DNA of 10,922 nt, taken from Candidatus Micrarchaeota archaeon (GTDB taxonomy: Archaea > B1Sed10-29 > JAJRYS01). The notes below the pieces were generated by a model that was not told the origin of the DNA, searched no databases, and saw nothing but the letters and a program-made list of their open reading frames with translations. The position numbers and the translations under genes were made by a program. This document shows, piece by piece, positions 1 through 10,922 of the stretch. The DNA lies in NCBI GenBank assembly GCA_964496415.1, contig CAZBZN010000024.1, positions 1-10,922 on the forward strand. The letters run 5' to 3'. Every line of letters starts with the position of its first letter. Positions within the stretch are counted from its first letter, which is position 1.

Positions 1-81
1 TCCATATCCCCTGCAAAGACCTAATCCTCGTCCAGTCATTGGTCCTAATCCTAATGGTCCTGTTCCATCAAGTCCTGGCAT
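1..81 (-). CDS. 5' part of a DUF5320-like small Gly-rich protein (runs off the window edge; not in the ORF track)
   Basis: Manual translation from ATG at 81 gives MPGLDGTGPLGLGPMTGRGLGLCRGYG..., matching the MPxxDGTGPxGxGPMTGRGxGxC N-terminus typical of DUF5320. An SD GGAGGTGG lies at 93-86. Confidence 0.85.
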   Translation of the reverse strand, partial: MPGLDGTGPLGLGPMTGRGLGLCRGYG

Positions 82-99
82 CAAACCACCTCCATTTTT

Positions 100-137
100 T
101 GAATTATTATTCAATAAGTGATATGAATTATAATTCA
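100..137. promoter_or_regulatory. Two tandem palindromic operator-like sites, TGAAT-TATW-ATTCA
   Basis: TGAATTATTATTCA at 100-113 and TGAATTATAATTCA at 124-137; 123-138 is a perfect 16-bp palindrome. Both lie just downstream of a minus-strand TATA box. Confidence 0.6.
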
Positions 138-142
138 TTTAG

Positions 143-156
143 TATTTAAAGGTTTC
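143..156 (-). promoter_or_regulatory. Archaeal BRE/TATA promoter for the DUF5320-like gene
   Basis: The minus strand reads GAAACC-TTTAAATA (156-143), about 60 nt upstream of the ATG. Confidence 0.55.
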
Positions 157-200
157 GGTTAGCACAGAGTTTAATAAAACAAAAACCTAAGAAAAAAAGC

Positions 201-2324
201 ATGTGCGGGATTATTGGTTTTTTTGACTACGATGACTCAGCGCAGAAAACAGTGAAAGGTCTTCAAATAATGAAGAACCGTGGAAAAGATTACTACGGAA
301 TAAGTAATGGAAAAGAAACAATCTACTCTAAAAAACTGAGCCAGTTAAAACTTGAAGGCAAGAACGTGATAGGGCATTGCCTTCATGCAATGGTTTCAGT
401 AGTCCCACAGCCTCTGAAAGCAAAAGGCTTCTTAGTCGCTAACTGCGAGATTTATAATTGGAAAAAAATAAGTAAAAAATACAAGTATGACGCGTGTAAT
501 GATTCAGAAGCTCTGCTTAAGTTGCTTGATGAAAAAGAGTTAAAAGCTTTAAAAGAACTTGACGGAGTGTATGCTTTTTGTTATTGGAAAAACAACAAAG
601 TAGTGTTATGCCGTGACATAATTGGAATAAAACCCTTATGGTATTCATATGATGAGAAGACAGGAAGGTTTTGTTTTGCATCTGAAAAGAAAGCACTTGA
701 ACAGCAGGGGGTAAAAAGAATAGTAGAACTTAATCCTAGAAAGATACTCATTTATGATACTAAAACAAAGAAAATAAGTTTTAGAAAAAGAAGGTTCTTC
801 ACTACAAAGCCAGAAGTAAAGGAAAGCGAAGAAAAGATAGTAAACAAGCTTAAGAGCTTAATTATTGAAAGCGTTAAGAAGAGAATAAGTAACCAAAAGA
901 CAGGGCTTCTTTTCTCATCAGGGATAGATTCTCTCATAATAGCTAAAGTGCTTAAAGACCTTGGAATAGAGTTTACTTGTTATGTTGCAGGATTTCCTGG
1001 TTCAAGAGACGTTGAAGCAGCTGAAAAAGCAGCAAAAGAATTAAGGTTAAAACTAAAAGTTAAAGAGCTTTCACTTCAAGAAGTTGAAGAACTGTTAAAA
1101 GAAGTAATTCCTTTAATAGAAGATAATAATGTTGTAAAAGCAGGAGTAGCGGCAACTCTTTTTGCAGCAGCTAAAAAAATGAAAGAAGATGGAGTGAAAG
1201 TGTGCTTTTCAGGGTCAGGAGCAGATGAGTTGTTTGCTGGTTACGAAAGACACAAAAAGAGTTATGATGTAAACAAGGAGTGCTTGTCAAGCATTAGGAA
1301 GTTCTATGAAGTAAACGCTTACCGGGATGACGTAATAACAATGAATAATAATATTGAACTAAGAGTACCTTTCCTTGACATCAAGCTTGTCAGGTACGCG
1401 TTAAGAATTCCTTCAAGCATGAAAATCAGTAATGGCCAGTCAAAATACGTGTTGAGGAAGGTTGCTGAAAGCCTTGGAATACCAAAACACTTGATAAGGG
1501 AAAAGAAAGCAGCACAATACGGAAGCAGGGTTGACTGGGCTATTCAAAAGCTTGCTAAAAAGCAAGGAAAAACAAAAGCAGACTACCTGAGGCAGTTTTA
1601 TGATTCAGGGAACGTTAAACTTGGAGTGCTGTTCAGTTCAGGCAAGGACAGTTGTCTTGCAATGGAAGTAATGATGAAACAAAACTATGACGTGAAGTGT
1701 TTGATAACAATAAAAAGCAAAAATCCTCACTCTTACATGTTTCACACTCCTAACATTCATCTAACAGAATTACAAGCAAAAGCCATGAACCTTCCAATAA
1801 TAATCCAAGATACTAAAGGTGAAAAAGAAAAAGAACTAAAAGACCTGAAAAAAGCGATTAAGAAAGCAATAGAAGAGTATGAAATTGAAGGAATAGTCAC
1901 TGGAGCATTATATTCTACTTACCAAAGAGACAGAATAGAAAAAATCTGCGACGAGCTTGGATTAAAATGTTTTGCACCACTATGGCATATGGATCAAGAA
2001 AAAGAAATGCGTAGAGTAGTGAAAAACTATAAAATCATATTCACTTCAATTTCAGCTTATGGACTTGATGAGTCATGGCTTGGTAGAAGGATAACTGAAA
2101 AAGACGTGGAAGAACTTGTAAAACTTAATAAAAAATACGGCATAAACGTTGCTGGAGAAGGAGGAGAGTTTGAAAGCTTAGTGCTTGACGCTCCTTTCTT
2201 CAACAAAGAAATAAGAATACTTGACTATGAAATAATTAAAGAAAATGAATTCACTGCAAGAATGGTGATTAAAAAAGCAGAATTAGCAAGAAAACAAGTA
2301 TTAAAAACCAAAAATACTTCTTAA
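201..2324 (+). CDS. Fusion of a glutamine-hydrolysing asparagine synthetase-like protein (Ntn amidotransferase plus synthetase domain) and a C-terminal diphthine-ammonia ligase (Dph6/ATP_bind_4) domain
   Basis: AsnB-type motifs: MCGI (catalytic Cys2), NCEIYN, RDIIGIKPL, PP-loop FSSGIDS, SGSGADELFAGY, ELRVPFLD. From about residue 471 there is a second PP-loop LFSSGKDS, then SYMFH, APLW and GEGGEFES (Dph6 family). Confidence 0.9.
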   Translation: MCGIIGFFDYDDSAQKTVKGLQIMKNRGKDYYGISNGKETIYSKKLSQLKLEGKNVIGHCLHAMVSVVPQPLKAKGFLVANCEIYNWKKISKKYKYDACNDSEALLKLLDEKELKALKELDGVYAFCYWKNNKVVLCRDIIGIKPLWYSYDEKTGRFCFASEKKALEQQGVKRIVELNPRKILIYDTKTKKISFRKRRFFTTKPEVKESEEKIVNKLKSLIIESVKKRISNQKTGLLFSSGIDSLIIAKVLKDLGIEFTCYVAGFPGSRDVEAAEKAAKELRLKLKVKELSLQEVEELLKEVIPLIEDNNVVKAGVAATLFAAAKKMKEDGVKVCFSGSGADELFAGYERHKKSYDVNKECLSSIRKFYEVNAYRDDVITMNNNIELRVPFLDIKLVRYALRIPSSMKISNGQSKYVLRKVAESLGIPKHLIREKKAAQYGSRVDWAIQKLAKKQGKTKADYLRQFYDSGNVKLGVLFSSGKDSCLAMEVMMKQNYDVKCLITIKSKNPHSYMFHTPNIHLTELQAKAMNLPIIIQDTKGEKEKELKDLKKAIKKAIEEYEIEGIVTGALYSTYQRDRIEKICDELGLKCFAPLWHMDQEKEMRRVVKNYKIIFTSISAYGLDESWLGRRITEKDVEELVKLNKKYGINVAGEGGEFESLVLDAPFFNKEIRILDYEIIKENEFTARMVIKKAELARKQVLKTKNTS

Positions 2325-2329
2325 TAGGT

Positions 2330-3049
2330 ATGATAAAAACAGGAATAAGTGAGTTTGACGAGTTAATTGGAGGCGGAATCCAAGCAGGATTCGTTATCTT
2401 AATAGAAGGGCCTGTTGGAAGTGGGAAAAGCTTCTTAATAAATCATCTTGCAATGAACGCGATAAAACAAAACCTGAAAATGGTCTACGTCTGCAGCAAC
2501 TCAAGAATAGGCTATCTAAAAGAGTTCTTTGAAAAAGAAGGAGCAGACGTACTATTTGTTGATTTTTACTCATGGAAAATAAGAGAAACAATCCCAGGAA
2601 CCATTGGTATAACAACACTTTCAAATATCGCTGAATGCTTAGAAGCAATCAAAAAAGCATGTGAAGAAAAACAACCAAACCTGCTTTTGTTTGACAGCCT
2701 AAGTGATGTGATTTTATATAATGATCAAAATGAATTTTTCAAGTGCTTATCAAATTTAGTTGCTTTCCTAAAAAGCAAAAGAATAACTACGGTCATGGTT
2801 ATTGAAAAGGACCTCCATGATGACAAAGTAATATCACTGGCAGAATACTTAAGTGACGGCGTGATAGAAACAAGAATAAACGAAAGTGAAAGACAATTAA
2901 GAGTGCTTAAAATGCTTGGAACAAGCATTCCTTTAAAATGGATTACTTATGAACTAACCCCTGAAGGAATAAAGCTAATTGAACAGAGGAAAAAAGAGAT
3001 ACAACAAGAAATAAAAAAAGCAGAAAAGAGAATAAGACAAACCTCATAA
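2330..3049 (+). CDS. RAD55/KaiC-like RecA-superfamily ATPase (single domain)
   Basis: KTGISEFDELIGGG start, Walker A GPVGSGKS, Walker B LLLFDS, EYLSDGVI and RQLRVLKMLG. Starts 5 nt after the previous stop codon. Confidence 0.88.
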   Translation: MIKTGISEFDELIGGGIQAGFVILIEGPVGSGKSFLINHLAMNAIKQNLKMVYVCSNSRIGYLKEFFEKEGADVLFVDFYSWKIRETIPGTIGITTLSNIAECLEAIKKACEEKQPNLLLFDSLSDVILYNDQNEFFKCLSNLVAFLKSKRITTVMVIEKDLHDDKVISLAEYLSDGVIETRINESERQLRVLKMLGTSIPLKWITYELTPEGIKLIEQRKKEIQQEIKKAEKRIRQTS

Positions 3050-3051
3050 TT

Positions 3052-4092
3052 TTATTTTTTTAAGTAAACAGTGGTTGTTGGGAAAGGAATGTTTATCTTC
3101 TCTTTCTTAAACCTCTTTAACAAGTTTTTCTTGAACTTGCTTTCAATCCTCCACCTGTCAGTGAAATCTTTTATCCTAAAGATTACTGTGAAATTCAAAG
3201 AATACTCGCCAAAATCACTGAACCTCACTATTGGTTTAAAGTCTTTTACTATCCCTTCGTCAGTTTTCCTGAGTTTTTCAACCTCCTCCTTAAGTATCTT
3301 TTCAACCTTATCAACGTCACTGTTATAATCTACTCCTATTGAAAAAATCAAAGAAGTTTCTTTCCTAGGTAAAGAATAGTTATAAATAATCATTTCAGAA
3401 AGCTTTGTATTAGGAATAACCACCAAGTAATTGGAAAGAGTTCTAATTCTAGTGGTCCTCCAGCCAATGCTTTCAATAAAACCTTCCTCGCCTGATTCAA
3501 GCCTTACATAATCACCAACCCTTATTGGCTTGTCAGCAAGCAAGTAAAACCCTGCAAAGAAAGAAGAAAGAGTATTCTGTAAAGCCAAAGCAACTGCAAG
3601 ACCAGCTATTCCAAGTCCTGCTAACAATGCTGTAACATCATAGCCAAAGATCGAGAGGATTATTGATATTGCTGCAAAATAAACAAAAGCCCTGAAAACA
3701 TTTCTTATCACTGGAAGAATCTGCTTGTCAACTTCTGGTCTTTGAACAACCCTCATCAAAGCAAAAGATATTATGAGGTTAAAAGATTCAATTGTAAGCT
3801 TAGCGCCTATCAAAACATAAACAACTTTAAACAACAAGTCAACAAGATGATAATAAGCTGAAAAGCTTGGAAGAAAACTAAAACCAACATGCAAGCCAAT
3901 AACAATAGCAAGCAAAGTTATTGGAAACTGAGTGTTTCTTATAAAAATATCATCAGCCTGCGTCTTAGTCTTCGCAGCTGCTTTTTTCAAAGCTGAAAAG
4001 ATAACTACATTAAGAACCTTAACAACTGCAAACACTCCAATTACTATCAGTATCAACGTCACTGCTTCTTCAACAGTCAACCCAAAAATCAT
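3052..4092 (-). CDS. mscS: Small-conductance mechanosensitive channel (MscS family)
   Basis: Several N-terminal hydrophobic segments, TM3 motif LLAGLGIAGLAVALALQNTLSSFFAG, KPIRVGDYV, IGWRTTRIRT, VVIPN and C-terminal INIPFP. The ATG at 4092 has SD GGTGG at 4104-4100, so it is preferred over the TTG at 4098. Confidence 0.93.
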   Translation of the reverse strand: MIFGLTVEEAVTLILIVIGVFAVVKVLNVVIFSALKKAAAKTKTQADDIFIRNTQFPITLLAIVIGLHVGFSFLPSFSAYYHLVDLLFKVVYVLIGAKLTIESFNLIISFALMRVVQRPEVDKQILPVIRNVFRAFVYFAAISIILSIFGYDVTALLAGLGIAGLAVALALQNTLSSFFAGFYLLADKPIRVGDYVRLESGEEGFIESIGWRTTRIRTLSNYLVVIPNTKLSEMIIYNYSLPRKETSLIFSIGVDYNSDVDKVEKILKEEVEKLRKTDEGIVKDFKPIVRFSDFGEYSLNFTVIFRIKDFTDRWRIESKFKKNLLKRFKKEKINIPFPTTTVYLKK

Positions 4093-4154
4093 GAACAAAC
4101 CACCGTAAAAAACAACACCAAAGGCATTAAAAAAACTAACTGTTTAATCCTGCT

Positions 4155-4901
4155 TTACCGCAATGGTTTCCTTGCAGTTAGGATTACTGTTTTCACGTCA
4201 ACAAGACAATCAACACAGCCATTATTCATCACCCTCATGTTATGTGCTCTTTTAAGCTCGTCGCTTTTCAGGTAAATGCTCAGTATTTTCTCCTGCTTTT
4301 TTAAAGGCACGCAGCTGTTCTCAAGCCAGTTTCTAACGCTTTTCTGCTTGAGAACATGGAAAGATTCATCAATTACTTCAAAACCAGCTTTTTCAACAAG
4401 TCTTCTAAGACTCTTCTCAGTAAACAGGATTCTTTTCTCTTTTAACCTGAATATTTTTTTATAGTACTTTACTGTGTCTTGTGATGGAGGTATTCCTTCA
4501 GAAATGACGAACAAGCTTCCTGGTTTAAGAGCATAAAGACATTGCCTTAGCGCTTTTTTTGTTCCTCTTGTAATGTGATGAAGCACAGACCTCATAAAAG
4601 CCTTGTTAAAAAACTCTTCTTGAAAAAGAGGTTTTCTAATATCCCATAACACAAAAGCCTTGTTATCTCCCCAGTTTCCTTGAGCAAGCATATGAGGAGA
4701 AATATCCACTCCTATTACTTGTTTTGCAACAACTGCTGCTGCGTCAGCTACTTTTCCAGTGCCAGTTCCCACGTCAAGCACAATGTCATCAGGCTTCAAG
4801 CAGGCTTTTCTTATAAAACAATCCATGTATTGCTTGTCATTAACCCATTCAAGGTTGTTGAACTTTTCAGCTCTTTTCTGCCAAAACCTTACTGCTCTCA
4901 T
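4155..4901 (-). CDS. Class I SAM-dependent methyltransferase, substrate unknown
   Basis: Motif I VLDVGTGTG, GVDISPHML, SVLHHI and LKPG. Confidence 0.88.
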   Translation of the reverse strand: MRAVRFWQKRAEKFNNLEWVNDKQYMDCFIRKACLKPDDIVLDVGTGTGKVADAAAVVAKQVIGVDISPHMLAQGNWGDNKAFVLWDIRKPLFQEEFFNKAFMRSVLHHITRGTKKALRQCLYALKPGSLFVISEGIPPSQDTVKYYKKIFRLKEKRILFTEKSLRRLVEKAGFEVIDESFHVLKQKSVRNWLENSCVPLKKQEKILSIYLKSDELKRAHNMRVMNNGCVDCLVDVKTVILTARKPLR

Positions 4902-5008
4902 TAAAACCTTCTTAAAACAAAACCAGTTTAAAAAATAAACGTATATAACTTCGACGATTGATGAAAAAAGGTCTTGTTTTAAAAACTTTAAAGCAGTAAG
5001 TAATATTC

Positions 5009-5491
5009 ATGATAAGAAAAAAACCAAAAGTCAATTCTTACAAAGCTGAAAGACTTCTTAATTATACAATAAGTCATGGCATGAAAGGATTTTGGGCTGC
5101 AAGAAACTACAGGAAAGCAATAAAAATAGCTGATGAAAGAGTTCTTGAAATGCTTGAAAGAACAATAAAAAAAGAAAAAGACCTTAATGAAAAAACAAAA
5201 CAAAAACTAATAGAACTAGTGAAAATCAGAAGAAACGAACTTGAAAACAAAACAAGAAGAGTAAACCTACGTGACTTAATGAACGCAATGCGTACTGGGA
5301 AAATGCCTGACGCTGACTATTATGCAAGAGTGGCAAAAGCAAGAGGGCTCTCTTTAGCGCAAGTAAAAGACATAAAAGCCATGATTAAGAAAAACCAAAT
5401 AACGAAAAAAGAACTTGAAAAAATAATAAAAAACGAAAAATCAGAAAGGATTAAAAAAGCTCTTCAAAAAGCTGCTGAAAAATGGTTATGA
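5009..5491 (+). CDS. Hypothetical Lys/Arg-rich, probably helical protein (160 aa)
   Basis: The ORF fills the gap between divergent and convergent neighbours. TTTAAA motifs about 20-30 nt upstream suggest a leaderless start. No family motif recognised. Confidence 0.7.
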   Translation: MIRKKPKVNSYKAERLLNYTISHGMKGFWAARNYRKAIKIADERVLEMLERTIKKEKDLNEKTKQKLIELVKIRRNELENKTRRVNLRDLMNAMRTGKMPDADYYARVAKARGLSLAQVKDIKAMIKKNQITKKELEKIIKNEKSERIKKALQKAAEKWL

Positions 5492-5493
5492 AT

Positions 5494-6075
5494 TCAGTAC
5501 TCCTCACACTTCAATTGGAAGTAAGCCTTTGGATGACCGCATGAAGGGCATGCTTCTGGTGGTTCTTCACCCTCATGAACGTACCCGCATTTCCTGCAAA
5601 CCCAATACACTTTCTTCTCTTTCTTGAAAACAGTCCCTGCTTCTACTTGCTCCAACAGCTTCTTGTACCTTTCTTCATGATGCTGTTCAGCTCTTGCAAT
5701 GGCCCTCAGCCTTGCAGCTATTTCAGGAAAACCTTCCCTCTCAGCCACGTCAGCAAATTCAGGGTACATTTTCGTGTACTCATAGTTTTCCCCAGCTATC
5801 GCTGCTTTCAAGTTCTCTGCAGTACTTCCAAGCACTACTGGAACAGGAGACTCTACCCTCAAGTCCACTTCCTCACCAGACTTCTTCAGCAACTCATTTA
5901 AAAGCCTGAATAACCATTTAGCATGCTCTCTTTCATTATCAGCAGTCACTTCAAACACTTCTGCTATCTGTTCGTATCCTTCTTTCTTAGCAATCTTAGC
6001 ATAGAAAGAATAACGATTCCTCGCCATGCTTTCTCCAATGAACGCTTTTGCAAGGTTCTCAATAGTTTCTTTCAT
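5494..6075 (-). CDS. rbr: Rubrerythrin
   Basis: Diiron motifs [23 protein letters not shown] and AEQHH, plus a C-terminal rubredoxin-like CRKC...CPSC. SD GAGGTGG at 6086-6080 places the start at 6075 or 6078 rather than 6111. Confidence 0.95.
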
Positions 6076-6183
6076 CATACCACCTCTTTGAAGTAAATAA
6101 GTAATAATCATTAAAAAACATCTAATAAAGGATAAGTATCAACTATTTTTTACCAAATTAGTAAAATAATCATAAAAACAAGT

Positions 6184-6205
6184 AAAAGAGGCAAAGCCTC
6201 TCTTT
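6184..6205 (-). terminator. Hairpin with a short T-tract downstream of the 44-aa gene
   Basis: Minus strand AGAGGC-TTT-GCCTCT followed by TTT; the stem spans 6187-6201, 14 nt after the stop codon. Confidence 0.5.
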
Positions 6206-6215
6206 CACATCTGGT

Positions 6216-6350
6216 TTAAAATCCTAGTTTTTCTGTCAACCTGCTCAAATGGCCTGTAAAATGTAGCACAGCTATAATAACTACTATTACAGCAACTACA
6301 ACAGCTCCAATTACTTGTGGATTTGAAGCTAATGCTGACAAATCAGTCAT
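6216..6350 (-). CDS. Unannotated 44-aa single-pass membrane protein
   Basis: MTDLSALASNPQVIGAVVVAVIVVIIAVLHFTGHLSRLTEKLGF*. Strong SD GGAGGTGG at 6362-6355, upstream BRE/TATA and a downstream hairpin. Confidence 0.8.
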   Translation of the reverse strand: MTDLSALASNPQVIGAVVVAVIVVIIAVLHFTGHLSRLTEKLGF

Positions 6351-6370
6351 TTCCCCACCTCCAAATTTAG

Positions 6371-6422
6371 ATGTATGAAATAATATTTTCATACATATGT
6401 AACAATTAATTATAAAGTTTTC
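6371..6422 (-). promoter_or_regulatory. BRE/TATA promoter with an overlapping inverted-repeat operator
   Basis: Minus strand GAAAAC-TTTATAAT at 6422-6409. A perfect inverted repeat ATGTATGAAA-N6-TTTCATACAT (6371-6396) covers the expected transcription start. Confidence 0.65.
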
Positions 6423-6425
6423 TAC

Positions 6426-6818
6426 TTAAAAAGACTTTCGGCTAGCTCGCTTTTTAAAAATATCATTCATCTCTTTTATTGCTTTTTCAACTTGGTTTTT
6501 GGTTATCTGCCATGCTTTTTCAATAGAAACAGAATAATAAATATACTTCAACCTTTTTCCTTCAGTTATTACTCTCCTCTTTATCAACTTTTTCTCTAAA
6601 AGAACTTTTATATACTTTCTAATGGTTCTTTCAGTTACATTCATTTGTTTTTTAATTTGGTTTATTGTAAGTTTTTTATTTAAAAGTAATTTGTAAAGTT
6701 TAATTTCTGTACTCTTAAAACCTAAAAACAAGAAAAAAGTGTCAAGTATCTTTTCTGGGTTATGTTTCTTTTTCAAATCAACTTTAAACTCTGCTAACTT
6801 GTCAATTTTTAACATCAT
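6426..6818 (-). CDS. Winged-HTH transcriptional regulator (TrmB-like N-terminal domain)
   Basis: LGFKSTEIKLYKLLL...LTINQIKKQMNVTERTIRKYIKVLLEKKLIKR...YIYYSV fits the archaeal wHTH pattern. Confidence 0.8.
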   Translation of the reverse strand: MMLKIDKLAEFKVDLKKKHNPEKILDTFFLFLGFKSTEIKLYKLLLNKKLTINQIKKQMNVTERTIRKYIKVLLEKKLIKRRVITEGKRLKYIYYSVSIEKAWQITKNQVEKAIKEMNDIFKKRASRKSF

Positions 6819-6846
6819 AATATTATTAACTTTTTCTATTATTTAA

Positions 6847-6863
6847 TTCATATGTATGAAAAT
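6847..6863. promoter_or_regulatory. Second copy of the operator motif, upstream of the regulator gene
   Basis: CATATGTATGAAAAT (6849-6863) is the exact reverse complement of 6385-6399, and TTCATA-TG-TATGAA (6847-6860) is itself a dyad. Confidence 0.6.
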
Positions 6864-6878
6864 TATCAAACCCTATTA

Positions 6879-7799
6879 TTAAAAAGCTTGTTTAAAAGGT
6901 TTACTTCTTGGAACAAACCTGACTCTTGGCCTTCCTTGCCCTGTTTTTGCTTTCATGTACTTGCTGAACTCACAGCAGCAGTTTTCAATGTTTGAAAGTG
7001 AAATCCTTTTAATCGGGTAATCTTTCCAGTAGTAATGCAAGAACTTGAAGTCAAGCCCAAACTCTTCAAAGTACTTGAACTGATTATCACGAAGGAATAT
7101 CATGGCGTCAAGCTCGTCTTTTGCCTTAAGATCAGGCCAGATGAACCTAAGGCCTCTCTTGCAGCCGTTCCCAGCAACAGCCCAGTCACCGTCCTCGCTG
7201 AAAGGAACAATTTTGTTATAAGTCAGGTCAAGAAGTATCTGGTAGCCAAGGAAATCACCTATTCCTGGAACGCTTGATATTACTTCAAAACACTCTTGCA
7301 TTGAATCAGCATGAGTAACCTCATCGTACAAGTCATCAAGGTTCCTGAACACGTGGTCTATTACTTCCACTATGTTAACGTACTTGTAAGGAGAGCCAGC
7401 GAACTTCTGGCCAGTGACTATGAAAGCAGAAGTGAATATCTTCATGCCTTTATTCTTCATCATAGTTAGCTTCTCAAGCAGTTTGCCCTTATCATACTCG
7501 TCGATTGTTTGAAAGCCGATGAAGCCAAAAGTCTCTGTCCGGTTAAACAACCTGTACACGAAAACGTTGAAGAACTGTTCCTTCTTACTGCCTTTGTTAA
7601 AAATGTGGTCGAACAAGTAGTAAGTGCCAGGGTCAAGTATCCTGTAAACGTTAGTGAACTTGTACTTCTTAAGTATTTCATCATTCGTCCATTCTTCTCT
7701 TGGAAGCTTCAGGATATTCCTCCTGTACCAAATCTCCTGCCTCTCTGTGACAAACCAGTAAAACATCCTCAGGTTTTCCTCAGCATCCTCAAAACGCAT
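6879..7799 (-). CDS. DNA base-hypermodification family protein (aGPT-Pplase clade 1 / 5-hmdU DNA kinase helical-domain-like, HhH fold)
   Basis: ERQEIWYRR...WTNDEILKKYKFTNVYR, YRLFNR, FTSAFIV, HhH-like VPGIGDFLGYQILLD, AGNGCKRGL and ENCCCEFSKY, recalled as motifs of this family. Confidence 0.75.
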   Translation of the reverse strand: MRFEDAEENLRMFYWFVTERQEIWYRRNILKLPREEWTNDEILKKYKFTNVYRILDPGTYYLFDHIFNKGSKKEQFFNVFVYRLFNRTETFGFIGFQTIDEYDKGKLLEKLTMMKNKGMKIFTSAFIVTGQKFAGSPYKYVNIVEVIDHVFRNLDDLYDEVTHADSMQECFEVISSVPGIGDFLGYQILLDLTYNKIVPFSEDGDWAVAGNGCKRGLRFIWPDLKAKDELDAMIFLRDNQFKYFEEFGLDFKFLHYYWKDYPIKRISLSNIENCCCEFSKYMKAKTGQGRPRVRFVPRSKPFKQAF

Positions 7800-7885
7800 G
7801 AACTAATTTAAAGAAATGCAAGGATATAATGCTAACGAAAAAAGAACAAAATCAACGTTAATGTCTTCTCATAATCCACTGCAAG

Positions 7886-7910
7886 GCTGCTCTGCAGTCA
7901 CAGCTTCATC
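7886..7910. repeat. Junction repeat copy 1
   Basis: GCTGCTCTGCAGTCACAGCTTCATC; the first 19 nt match 9486-9504 at 18/19. Confidence 0.85.
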
Positions 7911-7957
7911 AAACACTTTTCCATCTTATAGCACAGTAGTTACAAGTATAACTATTT

Positions 7958-8206
7958 TTACTCATCTACAAATATTTCTCTTTTTAATAAAACACTAATC
8001 AATTGGGTCACTTTATCTGCTATCTCTTCTTTACTTTCTTTACATTCCTTAGAAAGCTTTTCAATAACATACTCTACTGACTTTAAATCTATCTCGTCTA
8101 ATAACTTTTTACCTTCCTCTTTAACGACTATAATTGACCCAGGAACACCCATTATATATCCAAAACTTTCTTTTCTAACTCTTAATCTCGGATTATACTT
8201 TATCAT
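7958..8206 (-). CDS. Stand-alone PqqD/MftB-like RiPP recognition element (82 aa)
   Basis: Size and pattern fit an RRE: N-terminal strands PRLRVRKESFGYIM resembling MftB RPEPFGALL, then helices ending LISVLLKREIF. The start overlaps the radical SAM stop codon (ATGA). Confidence 0.75.
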   Translation of the reverse strand: MIKYNPRLRVRKESFGYIMGVPGSIIVVKEEGKKLLDEIDLKSVEYVIEKLSKECKESKEEIADKVTQLISVLLKREIFVDE

Positions 8207-9198
8207 TCATCCTCACATCCAACCAGATAATCCACATTATAAATCCTGTCATTCGTGCGGGGATCAGAAAAATAACAGCCACCTTCACAATCTTTAAAAT
8301 AAGGGCATTTCTTGCATTTATCACATAGCCAATCAAACTTTCTAAATTCTTTCAAAGTTTCTGAATTCCAAATCTCTGTTAGAGACTCTTTAAAAATATT
8401 TCCAACAACCATTTCAGTAGTCGGACAGATTTTAACATCCCCATTAGGAGTTATAGCACAAAAAGAAAACCCTGCGTTGCATTTATGAACTAAATCTTTA
8501 TACTCCTTACCTAGAACACATAAAGGTACCATATCAGCAAATGATATATTAACTTTAAAATCCTGGCTGGCTTTCTTCATTAATTCTGCTAACTCTTTAA
8601 TATCACTTTTCGACAAAGCAAGATCATTGTATTTTTTTCCTGAACCAGATTCAAAAAATCTATTTACAGCTATATTTTGAACATCAAATTTTTCTACAAA
8701 AAACTTAATATATTCATATATTTCTCTATAATTGCTTTTGATAGCGGTGAAATTTAAAGTTACTGGGATTCCTTTTTCTCTGATCTTTTTAAGAGATTCA
8801 ATTGTTTTGAACCAGGCCCCCTTTACTTGAACTATGCTATCATGCTTCTCAGGATTACATGAATGAATTGAAATGCCTATCCCTGAATCAGTTTCCTTAA
8901 TCACATCTATAATTTTCTCACTTATATTATAACAATTTGAAACTATTCCTGTAAATAACCCTATATCATAAGCATATTCAAAAAGTTCTTTAAGATAAGG
9001 ATAAAGAGTTGGCTCACCTCCAAAAAAGTTAACTTCAAACACATCCGCTTCTCTTAACCTATCAAGAATTTCTTTATGATGTTCTAAAGAATAAAAATTC
9101 TCAGCTTTTCTTTCTCCAGCATAACAAAATTTACATTTCAAATTACAATTATTAGTCACCTCAAAATTAACATACAAGGGAGCTTTTAAGTTAATCAT
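8203..9198 (-). CDS. Radical SAM/SPASM-domain protein, probable peptide maturase
   Basis: CxxxCxxC (CNLKCKFC), GGEP, and SPASM motifs CNAG...ITPNGDVKICP and CKKCPYFKDCEGGC (Cx2Cx5Cx3C). Confidence 0.93.
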   Translation of the reverse strand: MINLKAPLYVNFEVTNNCNLKCKFCYAGERKAENFYSLEHHKEILDRLREADVFEVNFFGGEPTLYPYLKELFEYAYDIGLFTGIVSNCYNISEKIIDVIKETDSGIGISIHSCNPEKHDSIVQVKGAWFKTIESLKKIREKGIPVTLNFTAIKSNYREIYEYIKFFVEKFDVQNIAVNRFFESGSGKKYNDLALSKSDIKELAELMKKASQDFKVNISFADMVPLCVLGKEYKDLVHKCNAGFSFCAITPNGDVKICPTTEMVVGNIFKESLTEIWNSETLKEFRKFDWLCDKCKKCPYFKDCEGGCYFSDPRTNDRIYNVDYLVGCEDE

Positions 9199-9249
9199 TT
9201 CATTAACTTTAAGCTTCTTTTCAAATGCAAAAGAAATTCCCAGCCCCCC

Positions 9250-9405
9250 TCAACACTTACCAGTCGGCGCACATTTACAATGACAACCAAGACATTTTTT
9301 CTTATCACTCATATGTACAGGCAAATCAGAAGATAAGTCTAATTCTTCAATTTTGAAATGGTCAAGAATCCCAAACATACCATCTATTTCACTAATGGAT
9401 TTCAT
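9250..9405 (-). CDS. Unannotated 51-aa Cys-rich putative RiPP precursor peptide
   Basis: MKSISEIDGMFGILDHFKIEELDLSSDLPVHMSDKKKCLGCHCKCAPTGKC*. SD GGGGTGA at 9416-9410. Acidic leader and five Cys in the last 14 residues; ends 51 nt before the radical SAM start. Confidence 0.82.
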   Translation of the reverse strand: MKSISEIDGMFGILDHFKIEELDLSSDLPVHMSDKKKCLGCHCKCAPTGKC

Positions 9406-9485
9406 GCCATCACCCCAATTATATTTTATTACTACTTATTTATAAAACCTCCTAAAATAGCCCCTTATAAAATATTTAATTTAAT

Positions 9486-9532
9486 GCTGCTCTGCACTCA
9501 CAGCAAGAGGACAACTGATGATCTGCTTCTAA
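9486..9532. repeat. Junction repeat copy 2 (long form, imperfect hairpin)
   Basis: GCTGCTCTGCACTCACAGCAAGAGGACAACTGATGATCTGCTTCTAA; 9489-9532 aligns to 10229-10273 at 37/45 columns. Confidence 0.9.
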
Positions 9533-9579
9533 CCTCTATTTAATAGCATAAGACCTAATATTCAAACCACCACAAATTT

Positions 9580-9798
9580 TTATTTCTTCAACATCCTCAC
9601 AGCAGTGCATAATGGGATCTCTTCTTTTTTGGAAACCTGTATTGCTTCTTCTACCCTGCTCCAAGAACCAAGTTCAGAATAAGCCCATGCTAAAGCAAAA
9701 GGCGGGCAGTAAAGCTTTTCTCTCTCCCATAACTCAAGAGCCTTGTCAGCAAGTTCAGGAAACTCTTCTTCCAACTCTTTCCTAAGAACTTCCTTCAT
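9580..9798 (-). CDS. Hypothetical 72-aa protein (MKEVLRKELEEEF...VRMLKK)
   Basis: The ATG at 9798 is preceded by GGAGGGGGTG (9813-9804). The longer 9945 start in the ORF track overlaps the cupin gene extensively and is unlikely. Confidence 0.7.
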   Translation of the reverse strand: MKEVLRKELEEEFPELADKALELWEREKLYCPPFALAWAYSELGSWSRVEEAIQVSKKEEIPLCTAVRMLKK

Positions 9799-10207
9799 AA
9801 ACACACCCCCTCCTAGCTGCTCTGCAGTAACCTGCTTTATCTTCGTTTTCAGGATACAAAATTTGATCATCCCTTCTAAAATTAATTTTAAGAACCAACA
9901 TTTCCAAGCTTTCATTTGAAAGATTTGTAAAACTGTGTTTTTCACCTACGTCAACAAAAAGAAGATCCCTTTCAGAGAGTTCAAATACTTTACCTTCAAT
10001 TTCTGCCCTCACATTACCCCTTGTTATATAAAATATTTCAGAAGTATAGTGATGAGCATGGGGAGGGATCCTTCCTCCAGGAGGTATGATAACATACTGA
10101 ATTAAATTAACAGATGGGGGTATGTTTTCCAATAACACTCTCTTTTGATAATTCATCTCTCCTTTTCCTTTAATCCATTTGCTTTCATCACTTTTAAAAA
10201 TTTTCAC
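9782..10207 (-). CDS. Cupin-domain protein
   Basis: Cupin motif 1 PPGGRIPPHAHHYTSEIFYITRG and motif 2 DLLFVDVGEKHSFTN. GTG start with SD GGGTGAGG at 10219-10212. The C-terminal tail reads through a junction repeat. Confidence 0.88.
   Translation of the reverse strand: MKIFKSDESKWIKGKGEMNYQKRVLLENIPPSVNLIQYVIIPPGGRIPPHAHHYTSEIFYITRGNVRAEIEGKVFELSERDLLFVDVGEKHSFTNLSNESLEMLVLKINFRRDDQILYPENEDKAGYCRAARRGCVYEGSS
9816..9841. repeat. Junction repeat copy 3 (short form)
   Basis: GCTGCTCTGCAGTAACCTGCTTTATC; the first 13 nt are identical to copy 1, and the ends are similar (GCTTTATC vs GCTTCATC). Confidence 0.8.
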
Positions 10208-10228
10208 CTATCCTCACCCACCGTACGA

Positions 10229-10273
10229 GCTACGCACTCACAGACAAGAGCACAGCTAATGATCTGCGGCTAA
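10229..10273. repeat. Junction repeat copy 4 (long form)
   Basis: GCTACGCACTCACAGACAAGAGCACAGCTAATGATCTGCGGCTAA; 37/45 identical to copy 2. Confidence 0.88.
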
Positions 10274-10282
10274 TTTCATTAG

Positions 10283-10813
10283 CTATTTCAATTTTTTAAG
10301 CTTTCTCTCGATTTCTCTCATCTTCTTCTCAGCATATTCTCTAGCCTCTGGAAGCATGAAAGAAGCTTCTAAATCTCTACGTAACTTCTGTAAGGCTTTC
10401 TCCAGTCCTAGGATTTTCACAAGTAATTCAAACCTACCAAAATGAGCCATGTTATCAGCTGATGCTACTATTTTTGCTTCTATTGTTTTTGGTTCAGGTG
10501 GTTTTCTTGTTCTATGAGTCTTAATGCAATGGACAATTTTGCTTATTTTCTCTTTGCTCATGTTAATAGAATTAAGAAATTCTTCTGCTTCTTTCGCAGA
10601 AGCAACTTCATGAGCTCTCCCCTTATAACCACCAACGGGATGTACTATGTCATGGAGCCACGCAGCAATCTCAACTACTTCCTCATCAGCTTCAGGATAG
10701 AAAGAGCAAAGCCACTTACTATGAGCAACAACTAATTTAACATGATGTTTAATAAACCAATCTGGAAGATTTTTCTTCACAAAACCCTTAACTTTTCTAA
10801 TATCCTTTCTCAT
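10283..10813 (-). CDS. HD-domain metal-dependent phosphohydrolase
   Basis: HHVKLV, AAWLHDI, HEVASA, IKTH and VASADN motifs. TTTAAATA about 25 nt upstream suggests a leaderless promoter. Confidence 0.88.
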   Translation of the reverse strand: MRKDIRKVKGFVKKNLPDWFIKHHVKLVVAHSKWLCSFYPEADEEVVEIAAWLHDIVHPVGGYKGRAHEVASAKEAEEFLNSINMSKEKISKIVHCIKTHRTRKPPEPKTIEAKIVASADNMAHFGRFELLVKILGLEKALQKLRRDLEASFMLPEAREYAEKKMREIERKLKKLK

Positions 10814-10844
10814 CAGTAAAATTAAGAACTTGGCTATTTAAAAA

Positions 10845-10877
10845 TTAGTGCTGCTCTGCACTCAAGATCTTCTTCAT
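10845..10877. repeat. Junction repeat copy 5
   Basis: TTAGTGCTGCTCTGCACTCA (10845-10864) matches 9481-9500 at 19/20. It is followed by AGATCTTCTTCAT, which resembles the GATCTGCTTC right end of copy 2. Confidence 0.85.
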
Positions 10878-10922
10878 ACAGCCATGCAGCTGTCTGTCAG
10901 CCTGGTGTCGTCATCGCAGCTG

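Follow-up and report, generated by a model that had tools for sequence, protein, structure and literature searches.

The DNA analysed in this study (the window, 10,922 nt) is the whole of contig C24 from the genome of a Candidatus Micrarchaeota archaeon (label G000; 687 kb in 41 contigs, 91% complete), whose lineage is DPANN-type. On its minus strand, small unrelated gene modules are separated by copies of a short motif, and the last of the five copies belongs to a 71-nt element at the contig end that is probably a box C/D guide small RNA (sRNA) gene. Our results suggest that the 3' end of this gene likely serves as an attachment site (attB), and that serial integration and erosion built there a tandem array of integrase-less islets resembling cis-mobilizable elements (CIMEs). 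The sRNA gene, the motif copies and the modules, with open reading frames (ORFs) and GC content at third codon positions (GC3) where relevant, lie as follows.

10850-10920, minus strand: predicted box C/D guide sRNA gene, 71 nt, intact and conserved in the order; its 3' end is copy 5 of the motif and the putative attB/attL.
10283-10813, minus strand: module 1, HD-domain protein of 176 aa (PF01966, E 2e-12).
10227-10267, minus strand: copy 4, apparently a truncated scar of the sRNA 3' end that keeps 7 nt of the core, plus an arm shared with copy 2.
9782-10207, minus strand: module 2, cupin protein (PF07883, E 9e-17).
9816-9844, minus strand: copy 3, apparently duplicated from the 3' end of the sRNA and then eroded; the final 11 nt match exactly, and identity over the alignment is 21 of 30 columns.
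9580-9798, minus strand: module 3, orphan ORF of 72 aa with no Pfam, PHROG or NCBIfam match.
9486-9529, minus strand: copy 2, apparently the 3' part of the sRNA interrupted by an insert of 18 nt; the final 15 nt match exactly, and 26 of the 30 columns aligned are identical.
7958-9405, minus strand: module 4, cluster resembling those for ribosomally synthesized and post-translationally modified peptides (RiPPs), with a 51-aa Cys-rich ORF (9250-9405), a radical SAM/SPASM gene (8203-9198) and a PqqD-like gene (7958-8206).
7886-7915, minus strand: copy 1, apparently an eroded 30-bp duplicate reaching from the C' box as far as the end of the stem; it agrees with the host sRNA 3' end in 25 of 31 aligned columns.
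6879-7799, minus strand: module 5, protein of the DNA-base hypermodification family PF18723 (E 1.5e-66; GC3 0.52).
6216-6818, minus strand: module 6, TrmB-like helix-turn-helix gene and small membrane peptide, beyond the tract first noted and with no scar beside it in G000.

Sequence inspection and a scan of the contig and genome found all five motifs where the first-pass annotation had placed them (7886, 9486, 9816, about 10229 and 10850), in one shared orientation. The 11-mer of the left part is exact at 7886, 9486, 9816 and 10850 and has no exact occurrence in the other 40 contigs of the genome; with one mismatch allowed, a single extra and unrelated match was found on C9. A fourth-order Markov model expects 0.0008 chance copies per 3 kb of one strand, and the probability of at least three extra copies is therefore about 1e-10. 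The five motifs are real and confined to one 3-kb tract of the 687-kb genome. This is not the picture of a dispersed repeat of the repetitive extragenic palindromic (REP-like) or miniature inverted-repeat transposable element (MITE-like) kind, since no exact copy lies outside C24 and the RNA model described below gives one match in G000.

The annotation had also placed exactly one motif at every module junction, with a right part of one recognisable type and no motif within 1-7800. Copy 3 is not intergenic, because the cupin ORF has no stop before it and reads through it (the cupin homologues of G018 and G022 reach their stop a few codons sooner and lack the motif), and copy 5 is the 3' end of a complete RNA gene reaching to 10920, which the annotation had missed in treating the motif as an element of junctions only. 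The right part proved loosely defined, and in copies 1-3 it aligns to the C'-box and guide region of the sRNA. The foreign tract does not stop at 7800 but extends to about 6216, and its junctions there bear no copy that can be recognised.

When the 3.1-kb tract was compared with 61 genomes in a DNA search, the best matches, two cupin homologues aside, were to its last 73 bp. The following parts of the predicted sRNA were recognised there.

10911-10916, minus strand: box C, degenerate, with an ATGA core that is invariant in 15 of 15 aligned sRNAs.
10897-10906, minus strand: D'-side antisense element, complementary to tRNA D loops, with 10 bp to the elongator tRNA-Met of G000.
10860-10869, minus strand: D guide, complementary at 10 of 10 positions to the anticodon arm of mature tRNA-Leu(CAA), with C34 at N+5.
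10855-10858, minus strand: box D, in the CAGA variant in G000.

On the minus strand, a 5-bp terminal stem encloses the element, in which box C is followed by an antisense element that does not vary, a hairpin that does, the C' box, another antisense element and finally box D. The two outer boxes, C towards the 5' end and D towards the 3' end, have the spacing of archaeal C/D RNAs (about 50-70 nt). Among 15 aligned sequences, box D is CUGA in seven, CAGA in four, CCGA in three and ACGA in one, with its GA invariant in 15 of 15; the TGA of the C' box is likewise invariant, and D' is degenerate, variable in position and hard to discern in G009 and G013. In the terminal stem, 74 of 75 cells are paired, with 15 double-sided changes over 15 sequences. 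Neither the paired percentage nor the covariation score was reached in any of 500 shuffles, and slid controls were 4-66% paired; the number of stem pairs with a change (3) was not above that of the shuffles. Among the order's 18 genomes, the sRNA model built from nine copies (R1) matched 15 with E values of at most 3e-7, six of them outside the training set; it gave a weak match in a sixteenth and none in G003 and G008. Its stem is one column out of register, so it acts as a sequence model, and the covariation was recounted in the correct register. Weak R1 matches outside the order (G019, G021, G025, G030, G069 and G090), some of which resemble related guides, were left out of the counts. Neither the tract nor the 10 loci scanned against Rfam came close to a match at threshold (best SNORD95, E 5.5), and the readings of the motif as a ribozyme, a riboswitch or a group II intron were rejected for want of Rfam support.

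The tRNA-Leu(CAA) gene of G000, on C2, carries a 38-nt intron. The D guide forms 10 bp with the mature tRNA (-15.3 kcal/mol) and 8 bp with the unspliced form, and the same tRNA-Leu(CAA) arm was seen in relatives. Leu(UAA) pairs with the D guide through a G-U at the N+5 position, and elongator Met pairs with two mismatches. For the D'-side element, the duplex with the D loop of elongator tRNA-Met (-18.6 kcal/mol) was the best of 33 tRNA-like regions scanned, and several other tRNAs reached -14 to -16 kcal/mol. Fibrillarin, Nop5 and L7Ae are all encoded in G000. The N+5 rule and the box consensus followed here are from PMC2584109, taken, like every source cited in this study, from the part of the text that was available. 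These results suggest that the 71-nt element is probably a box C/D guide sRNA gene that guides a tRNA modification. Judged from its sequence, it would be transcribed and would direct the methylation of C34 in tRNA-Leu(CAA), and a single guide may serve Leu(CAA) and also, though not so well, Leu(UAA) and Met.

Several further observations concern the sRNA and its target. Two more box C/D-like candidates with terminal stems are present in G000 (C6:9085, plus strand; C8:22516, minus strand). The central hairpin is enlarged by about 50-60 nt in G002 (L030:9999-10130) and in L037. The orientation of the sRNA gene with respect to the same conserved neighbours differs between families, being reversed in G005 and G007 versus G006, G012 and G014-G017. 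The tRNA-Leu(CAA) locus (G000:C2, about 44,700-44,940, minus strand), which was missed by ARAGORN, has an apparent T-loop insert besides the intron in its anticodon loop, and a DUF7557-ParE-type pair lies directly upstream of it.

The partial copies were aligned to the sRNA. Box C is absent from copies 1-4, the partial copies carry the host's own box D allele, and the alignments listed above indicate that the 3' end of the sRNA was duplicated and then eroded to give copies 1-4. The diverged copy 4 has an arm of about 27 bp in common with copy 2; the pattern of this arm was matched at two places in G000, and the 30 further class genomes had no match. Copies 1 and 3 have one substitution in common. 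The two features alternate along the array and may record two integrase or attP types.

Two readings that need no duplicated RNA gene end were weighed against the same alignments. If the copies were functional RNA elements kept between cistrons, as processing, termination or L7Ae-binding sites, it would fit that they are GC-rich, co-oriented, placed at gene boundaries and able to form small hairpins. However, no fold is shared among the five (the core folds at only -3 to -6 kcal/mol), the loss of box C speaks against such a role, copy 3 lies within a reading frame, the rest of the genome has no copies, and the same layout occurs with tRNA-Ser ends in a relative, G024. We regard this reading as highly improbable. 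Even less credible is an integron cassette array without integrase, that is, a cluster of attC sites lacking integron-integrases (CALIN), with atypical attC sites. Its appeal lies in the tightly packed, unrelated, co-oriented genes and in the existence of integrons in archaea (10.1101/2022.02.06.479319, available text). The motifs had been described as lacking attC ends, and we found the same: no end pair, strict or relaxed, occurs within 90 bp of any of the five sites on either strand, nor does any copy form the long bottom-strand hairpin with extrahelical bases of attC type. Moreover, the sRNA accounts for the motif, genes lie on both strands in the G024 array, and G000 has no tyrosine recombinase, although a CALIN does not require IntI.

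The sRNA loci were compared across 16 genomes and one metagenome contig (17 loci; G000 is the genome of the window, G001-G090 are comparison genomes and L037 is the metagenome contig). An exact downstream repeat of at least 11 bp, on the same strand and overlapping the sRNA end, was present at five of the 17 loci: 16 bp in G000, 12 bp in G004, 11 bp in G007, 32 bp in G009 and 20 bp in G011. Upstream and opposite-strand controls at the 17 loci gave repeats of at most 10 bp. In the four related genomes, the 11-32-bp duplicates of the sRNA 3' end bound small gene modules. All five repeat loci are among the nine whose stem ends in GCAGC, and none of the eight other-ended loci has a repeat; since six of those eight are one family with fixed neighbours, this association is not an independent test. 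An intact target gene followed by direct copies of its end that bound foreign DNA, the arrangement that defines a CIME array, was thus observed. A search of the genome collection with the sRNA end gave 19 matches, namely four archaeal sRNA loci in genomes already compared, L054 without the 5' part, and 14 bacterial matches that were set aside as chance. The metagenome search gave eight, of which three inside a GC-rich ORF were dropped, four were the same DNA as genomes already compared and one was new (L037).

The cargo at the sRNA end was found to differ between relatives. In G009, a 770-bp pair of small genes, without Pfam match and toxin-antitoxin-like by eye, lies between perfect 32-bp repeats (a further repeat copy beside an N gap is probably a scaffolding artefact), and in the congener G013 another gene fills the interval from the sRNA to the next core gene, which is the same in both. 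Likewise, G000 and G002 carry different cargo between the sRNA and the TrmB gene. In G004 and G011, which belong to different families, a DUF7557-ParE pair (78% and 68% identity) comes first after the sRNA and is closed by a repeat in each; the closing copy of G011, 16 bp, is cut by the contig end. As a separate observation, three tandem 25-bp units, each the sRNA-end pentamer plus a 20-bp hairpin, stand directly after the sRNA in G011 (L017:9720-9800), either real or an effect of assembly. Three of 31 genomes carry the module of the TrmB-like gene and the membrane peptide, and in all three it lies downstream of the sRNA: G007 has it in first position, closed by a duplicate, G002 has it behind an AbiEi/AbiEii pair, and G000 has it at 6216-6818. 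Its identity is 71% across families (G007) and 60% within the family (G002), whereas core genes show the reverse (across versus within, fibrillarin 55 vs 60% and L7Ae 65 vs 71%). The annotation had proposed that the motifs are scars of recombination sites between unrelated, laterally acquired modules, and the differing cargo lends support to this proposal.

The annotation had also expected a separate cassette-capture platform, with its recombinase beyond 10922. This was not supported, as the array starts at the sRNA at the contig end and no recombinase was found in G000. A second assembly extends the contig by 114 bp (L032), which hold the end of an upstream co-oriented ORF, HicA-like by eye, and then a TATA-like stretch ahead of the sRNA. 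A candidate recombinase at this site was found in a relative, and on the other side: in G001, an integrase ORF begins 52 nt past the sRNA stem end, downstream and at the first array position, and is cut at 103 aa by the contig end. Against a hidden Markov model (HMM) of five integrases of the lineage it scored E 2e-10 (34 bits; best of 200 shuffles 2.7 bits), and it scored 0.96 to integrase SAM-like N-terminal clusters. The same integrase family follows tRNA 3' ends in G017, G023 and G024; in G005 it lies at the 5' side of a tRNA, and in G025 and G007 no tRNA end lies upstream.

A parallel array was present in G024, a class-level relative, at the following loci.

G024:C28:6716-9775 (L278) and G024:C33:1-872 (L279): tRNA-Ser array and tRNA/integrase loci.

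On one contig, an intact tRNA-Ser(GCT) is followed by a tyrosine integrase. On the other, six 11-17-bp copies of the tRNA-Ser 3' end are spaced by 133, 216, 606, 1485 and 608 bp, with genes on both strands and a DUF7557-ParE pair in the last interval, as at the sRNA in G004 and G011. The tRNA-Ser end and the sRNA end both contain GCAGC, and the G001 fragment matches the G024 integrase slightly best (31 vs 28 bits); a switch of target from tRNA-Ser to the sRNA is conceivable on these sequence grounds, as a weak hypothesis. Other tRNA loci with repeated ends were noted as well. In G023 (C12, about 74,900-78,400), a tRNA is followed after 3.4 kb by part of its own 3' end, and an integrase of the same family comes immediately after this partial copy. 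In G000, a partial tRNA-Glu 3'-end copy lies 64 bp downstream of the tRNA (C32, about 3800-3900), and a tRNA-Gly-like 3' end recurs 1.6 kb downstream of tRNA-Gly (C5, about 33,950-35,565), which may be another split tRNA.

The integrase loci bear on whether the duplicates arose without any integrase. A casposase or a transposase with a preferred site could leave them as target-site duplications, for example, and slippage or illegitimate recombination at the sRNA end could produce them as well. The range of repeat lengths (11-32 bp), the threefold 25-bp tandem of G011 and the match of partial copies to the host's box D allele would suit such an origin, and duplications of sRNAs and MITE-like sRNA elements have been described (PMC6009581, available text). 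However, integrases adjoin the arrays in G001 and G024, the copies retain the 3' end alone and never box C, no terminal inverted repeats were seen by eye, and Cas1, IS200 and IS110 were not found in G000. We consider an integrase-free origin very unlikely.

The modules of the tract differ in composition (GC3 0.22 to 0.52), and none encodes its own integrase; no terminal inverted repeats were seen at module ends by eye. Across 31 phylum genomes, the HD protein has its closest match in G014, with 49% identity and at another place in that genome. The homologue search with the 72-aa orphan returned two candidates, of which only the ORF itself was retained. Module 4 has the domains PF04055 and PF13186 and a weak PF05402, with GC3 0.22-0.25, and its 51-aa Cys-rich ORF is presumably the RiPP precursor; the cluster is compact, lies in a reduced archaeal genome and has no NCBIfam family at cut-off. 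The gene of PF18723, a phage DNA hypermodification family, stands alone, occurs in one of 31 phylum genomes and has a best other homologue at 53% identity. Outside the tract, an asparagine-synthase-like amidotransferase fused to a diphthamide-synthase domain (707 aa) is encoded at 201-2324 of the window.

The small size of the modules raises the question of how they travel. In an integron-like system, modules would be born and travel as integrase-free mini-circles, each a gene with one att copy, and a helper integrase would insert them in trans at the 3' ends of RNA genes. It is in keeping with this that all bounded modules are small and integrase-free (four in the window, one each in G004, G007, G009 and G011, and five intervals in G024), that their genes lie within about 90 bp of the sites, that the 770-bp module of G009 is enclosed by perfect repeats, and that the same modules, the toxin-antitoxin pair of G004/G011 and the TrmB module, recur across families at the first position. 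However, the scars are heterogeneous and eroded, the cupin stop is lost and the TrmB module is scarless in G000. Twelve of 31 genomes have the DUF7557 gene, but RNA-end repeats bound only three of these 12 copies. An integrase is present in cis at the G001 site, and no circles were seen in three metagenome runs. We therefore judge this system improbable. A bolder form, in which a DPANN-type lineage exchanges integrase-free mini-cassettes of 0.1-1.6 kb between families, each with a short copy of an RNA-gene 3' end, and roaming tyrosine integrases stack them in trans at tRNA-Ser or, via a GCAGC target switch, at the C/D sRNA gene, is offered as a speculation that we think rather unlikely to be right.

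The explanation we favour, and hold to be likely, is integration at the sRNA 3' end by the tyrosine-integrase elements of the lineage, for which this end would be the attB. An incoming circle would recombine within the last 11-32 bp of the sRNA gene, and its insertion would restore box D and the 3' strand of the stem, so that the guide RNA still works. The displaced sRNA end would move downstream as a direct repeat, and repeated visits would pile up modules in tandem. Internal deletions would strip the integrases and wear the repeats down, leaving integrase-less, CIME-like islets of 0.3-1.6 kb, which a visiting integrase may re-excise. The sRNA anatomy, the tRNA complementarity, the duplicates, the variable cargo, the integrase ORF of G001 and the tRNA-Ser array are seen directly in the sequence; from them we infer the recombination itself, the order of events and the erosion.

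We favour this account because the sRNA is conserved, with a covarying stem and a perfect C34 guide, because copies 1-3 align to its 3' end and downstream-only repeats occur at other loci, and because an integrase ORF stands at the sRNA in G001 and its family at tRNA 3' ends. The matching tRNA-Ser array of G024 with the same toxin-antitoxin module, the same anchors enclosing different cargo (G000/G002 and G009/G013) and the TrmB module identity running opposite to that of core genes argue in the same direction, as does the preference of archaeal integrases for tRNA 3' ends (PMC8371274, available text). A variant in which an integrase for the tRNA-Leu anticodon loop strikes the antisense guide by mimicry was rejected, because mimicry would duplicate the 5' half of the sRNA and not its 3' end.

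A number of results weigh against it. No repeat was found at 12 of the 17 sRNA loci, including four of the nine GCAGC-ended ones (G001, G002, G005 and L037, of which G001, G005 and L037 have less than 1.4 kb downstream of the sRNA). The scar nearest the sRNA, copy 4, is expected to be the youngest and is the most damaged, and no conserved arm sequences were found 3' of the core. The comparison genomes are kin rather than independent samples. G000, 91% complete, has no match to PF00589, PF00239, PF01797, PF02371 or PF01867, that is, no tyrosine or serine recombinase, IS200, IS110 or Cas1, and no recombinase was found in the cargo-bearing G002, G004 and G011. Pfam and PHROGs gave no match to the G001 ORF, and neither did a word search or a phmmer search of 1.84 billion proteins; as this fragment at a contig end is missed by standard libraries, its catalytic domain is unseen. 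No attP came to light in viral contigs: a 15-letter pattern of the sRNA end hit 83 viral stretches, 80 of which were inspected with none extended convincingly, and these were taken as chance; the copy-2/4 pattern gave no viral matches, and the viral scan with the integrase gave no informative locus. Finally, three metagenome runs stored as contigs, a form that drops rare variants, contained no joints or module-less forms.

Three observations stand apart from this weighing. Viral scans with the PF18723 protein and the radical SAM protein gave no informative locus. The DNA of the window may come from one metagenome run (X1), and a near-identical strain with the same array is present in a second hydrothermal-vent run (X2), in which one contig starts exactly at 9486, the end of copy 2 (depth 4-8, no loose end); this was not used as evidence. 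The absence of a PF00589 match also means that no XerA-like recombinase was found in G000, and likewise in G002, G003 and G004 of the same family, all incomplete genomes.

If the favoured account is true, box C/D guide RNA genes join the RNA genes used as attachment sites, and island finders keyed to tRNA or tmRNA fragments would miss such archaeal hotspots. It would also give recombinase-less archaeal genomes of about 0.7 Mb a concrete route to gain toxin-antitoxin, RiPP and DNA-modification genes in small units. The finding supplies a defined 11-32-bp site and a candidate integrase family, with which dead remnants may be told from circulating cassettes, and it defines an unannotated family of predicted tRNA wobble-guide sRNAs in the lineage.

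The sRNA has functional counterparts. In the available texts, sR47 of Pyrococcus abyssi targets C34 of tRNA-Leu(CAA) (PMC5558902), and sR47, like sR49 and the Haloferax tRNA-Met guide (PMC2584109), is a C/D RNA whose D guide puts C34 at N+5, as here. The present sRNA differs in that it matched no Rfam family and pairs better with the spliced tRNA, and the likeness would be one of function, by guide pairing. Integrons and CALINs, including archaeal ones (10.1101/2022.02.06.479319), share with the tract small, unrelated, co-oriented, TA-rich modules and growth from one fixed site; they differ in that attC and IntI are missing here and that each junction is formed by the end of a host RNA gene, copied directly. 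Another non-tRNA structural RNA gene that serves as attB is ffs, the signal recognition particle (SRP) RNA gene, where a phage attaches (PMC12540744), but there a bacterial prophage brings its own integrase and the RNA is of another class. In the available part of a large provirus survey, 13.5% of RNA targets are unspecified non-coding RNAs (ncRNAs), and its supplements might list C/D cases (PMC13626063). The sRNA duplication and MITE-like sRNA copies of Pyrobaculum (PMC6009581) are a different phenomenon, and "integrase" occurs 0 times in the text available from that paper. Full-text literature searches, with most subscription papers outside their reach, did not find a C/D sRNA gene as an attachment site.

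The closest parallels come from islands at tRNA genes. In the tycheposon islands of Prochlorococcus (10.1101/2020.12.28.424599, available text), partial RNA-gene copies likewise lie between insertions, older elements are pushed outward and remnants accumulate, but these are bacterial, target tRNA or tmRNA genes and are larger elements with their own integration and replication genes. Archaeal integrases favour tRNA 3' ends with variable 5' limits (PMC8371274), and the elements in that review share with ours the 3'-end target and its variable 5' limit, an att that may extend outside the gene, an integrase beside att, tandem integration and integrase loss. The target inventory in its available text comprises tRNA genes, with "snoRNA" and "non-coding" occurring 0 times there, whereas a C/D sRNA gene is the target here. 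Tandem accretion at tRNA genes and CIMEs (PMC5704250, available text) show the same integrase-less remnants between att copies, stacked by repeated integration with the target gene restored; they differ from the present array in that the target here is a C/D sRNA gene, the modules are far smaller (0.3-1.6 kb), the host is a small-genome archaeon and no conjugative helper was identified. The mechanism is known for tRNA genes.

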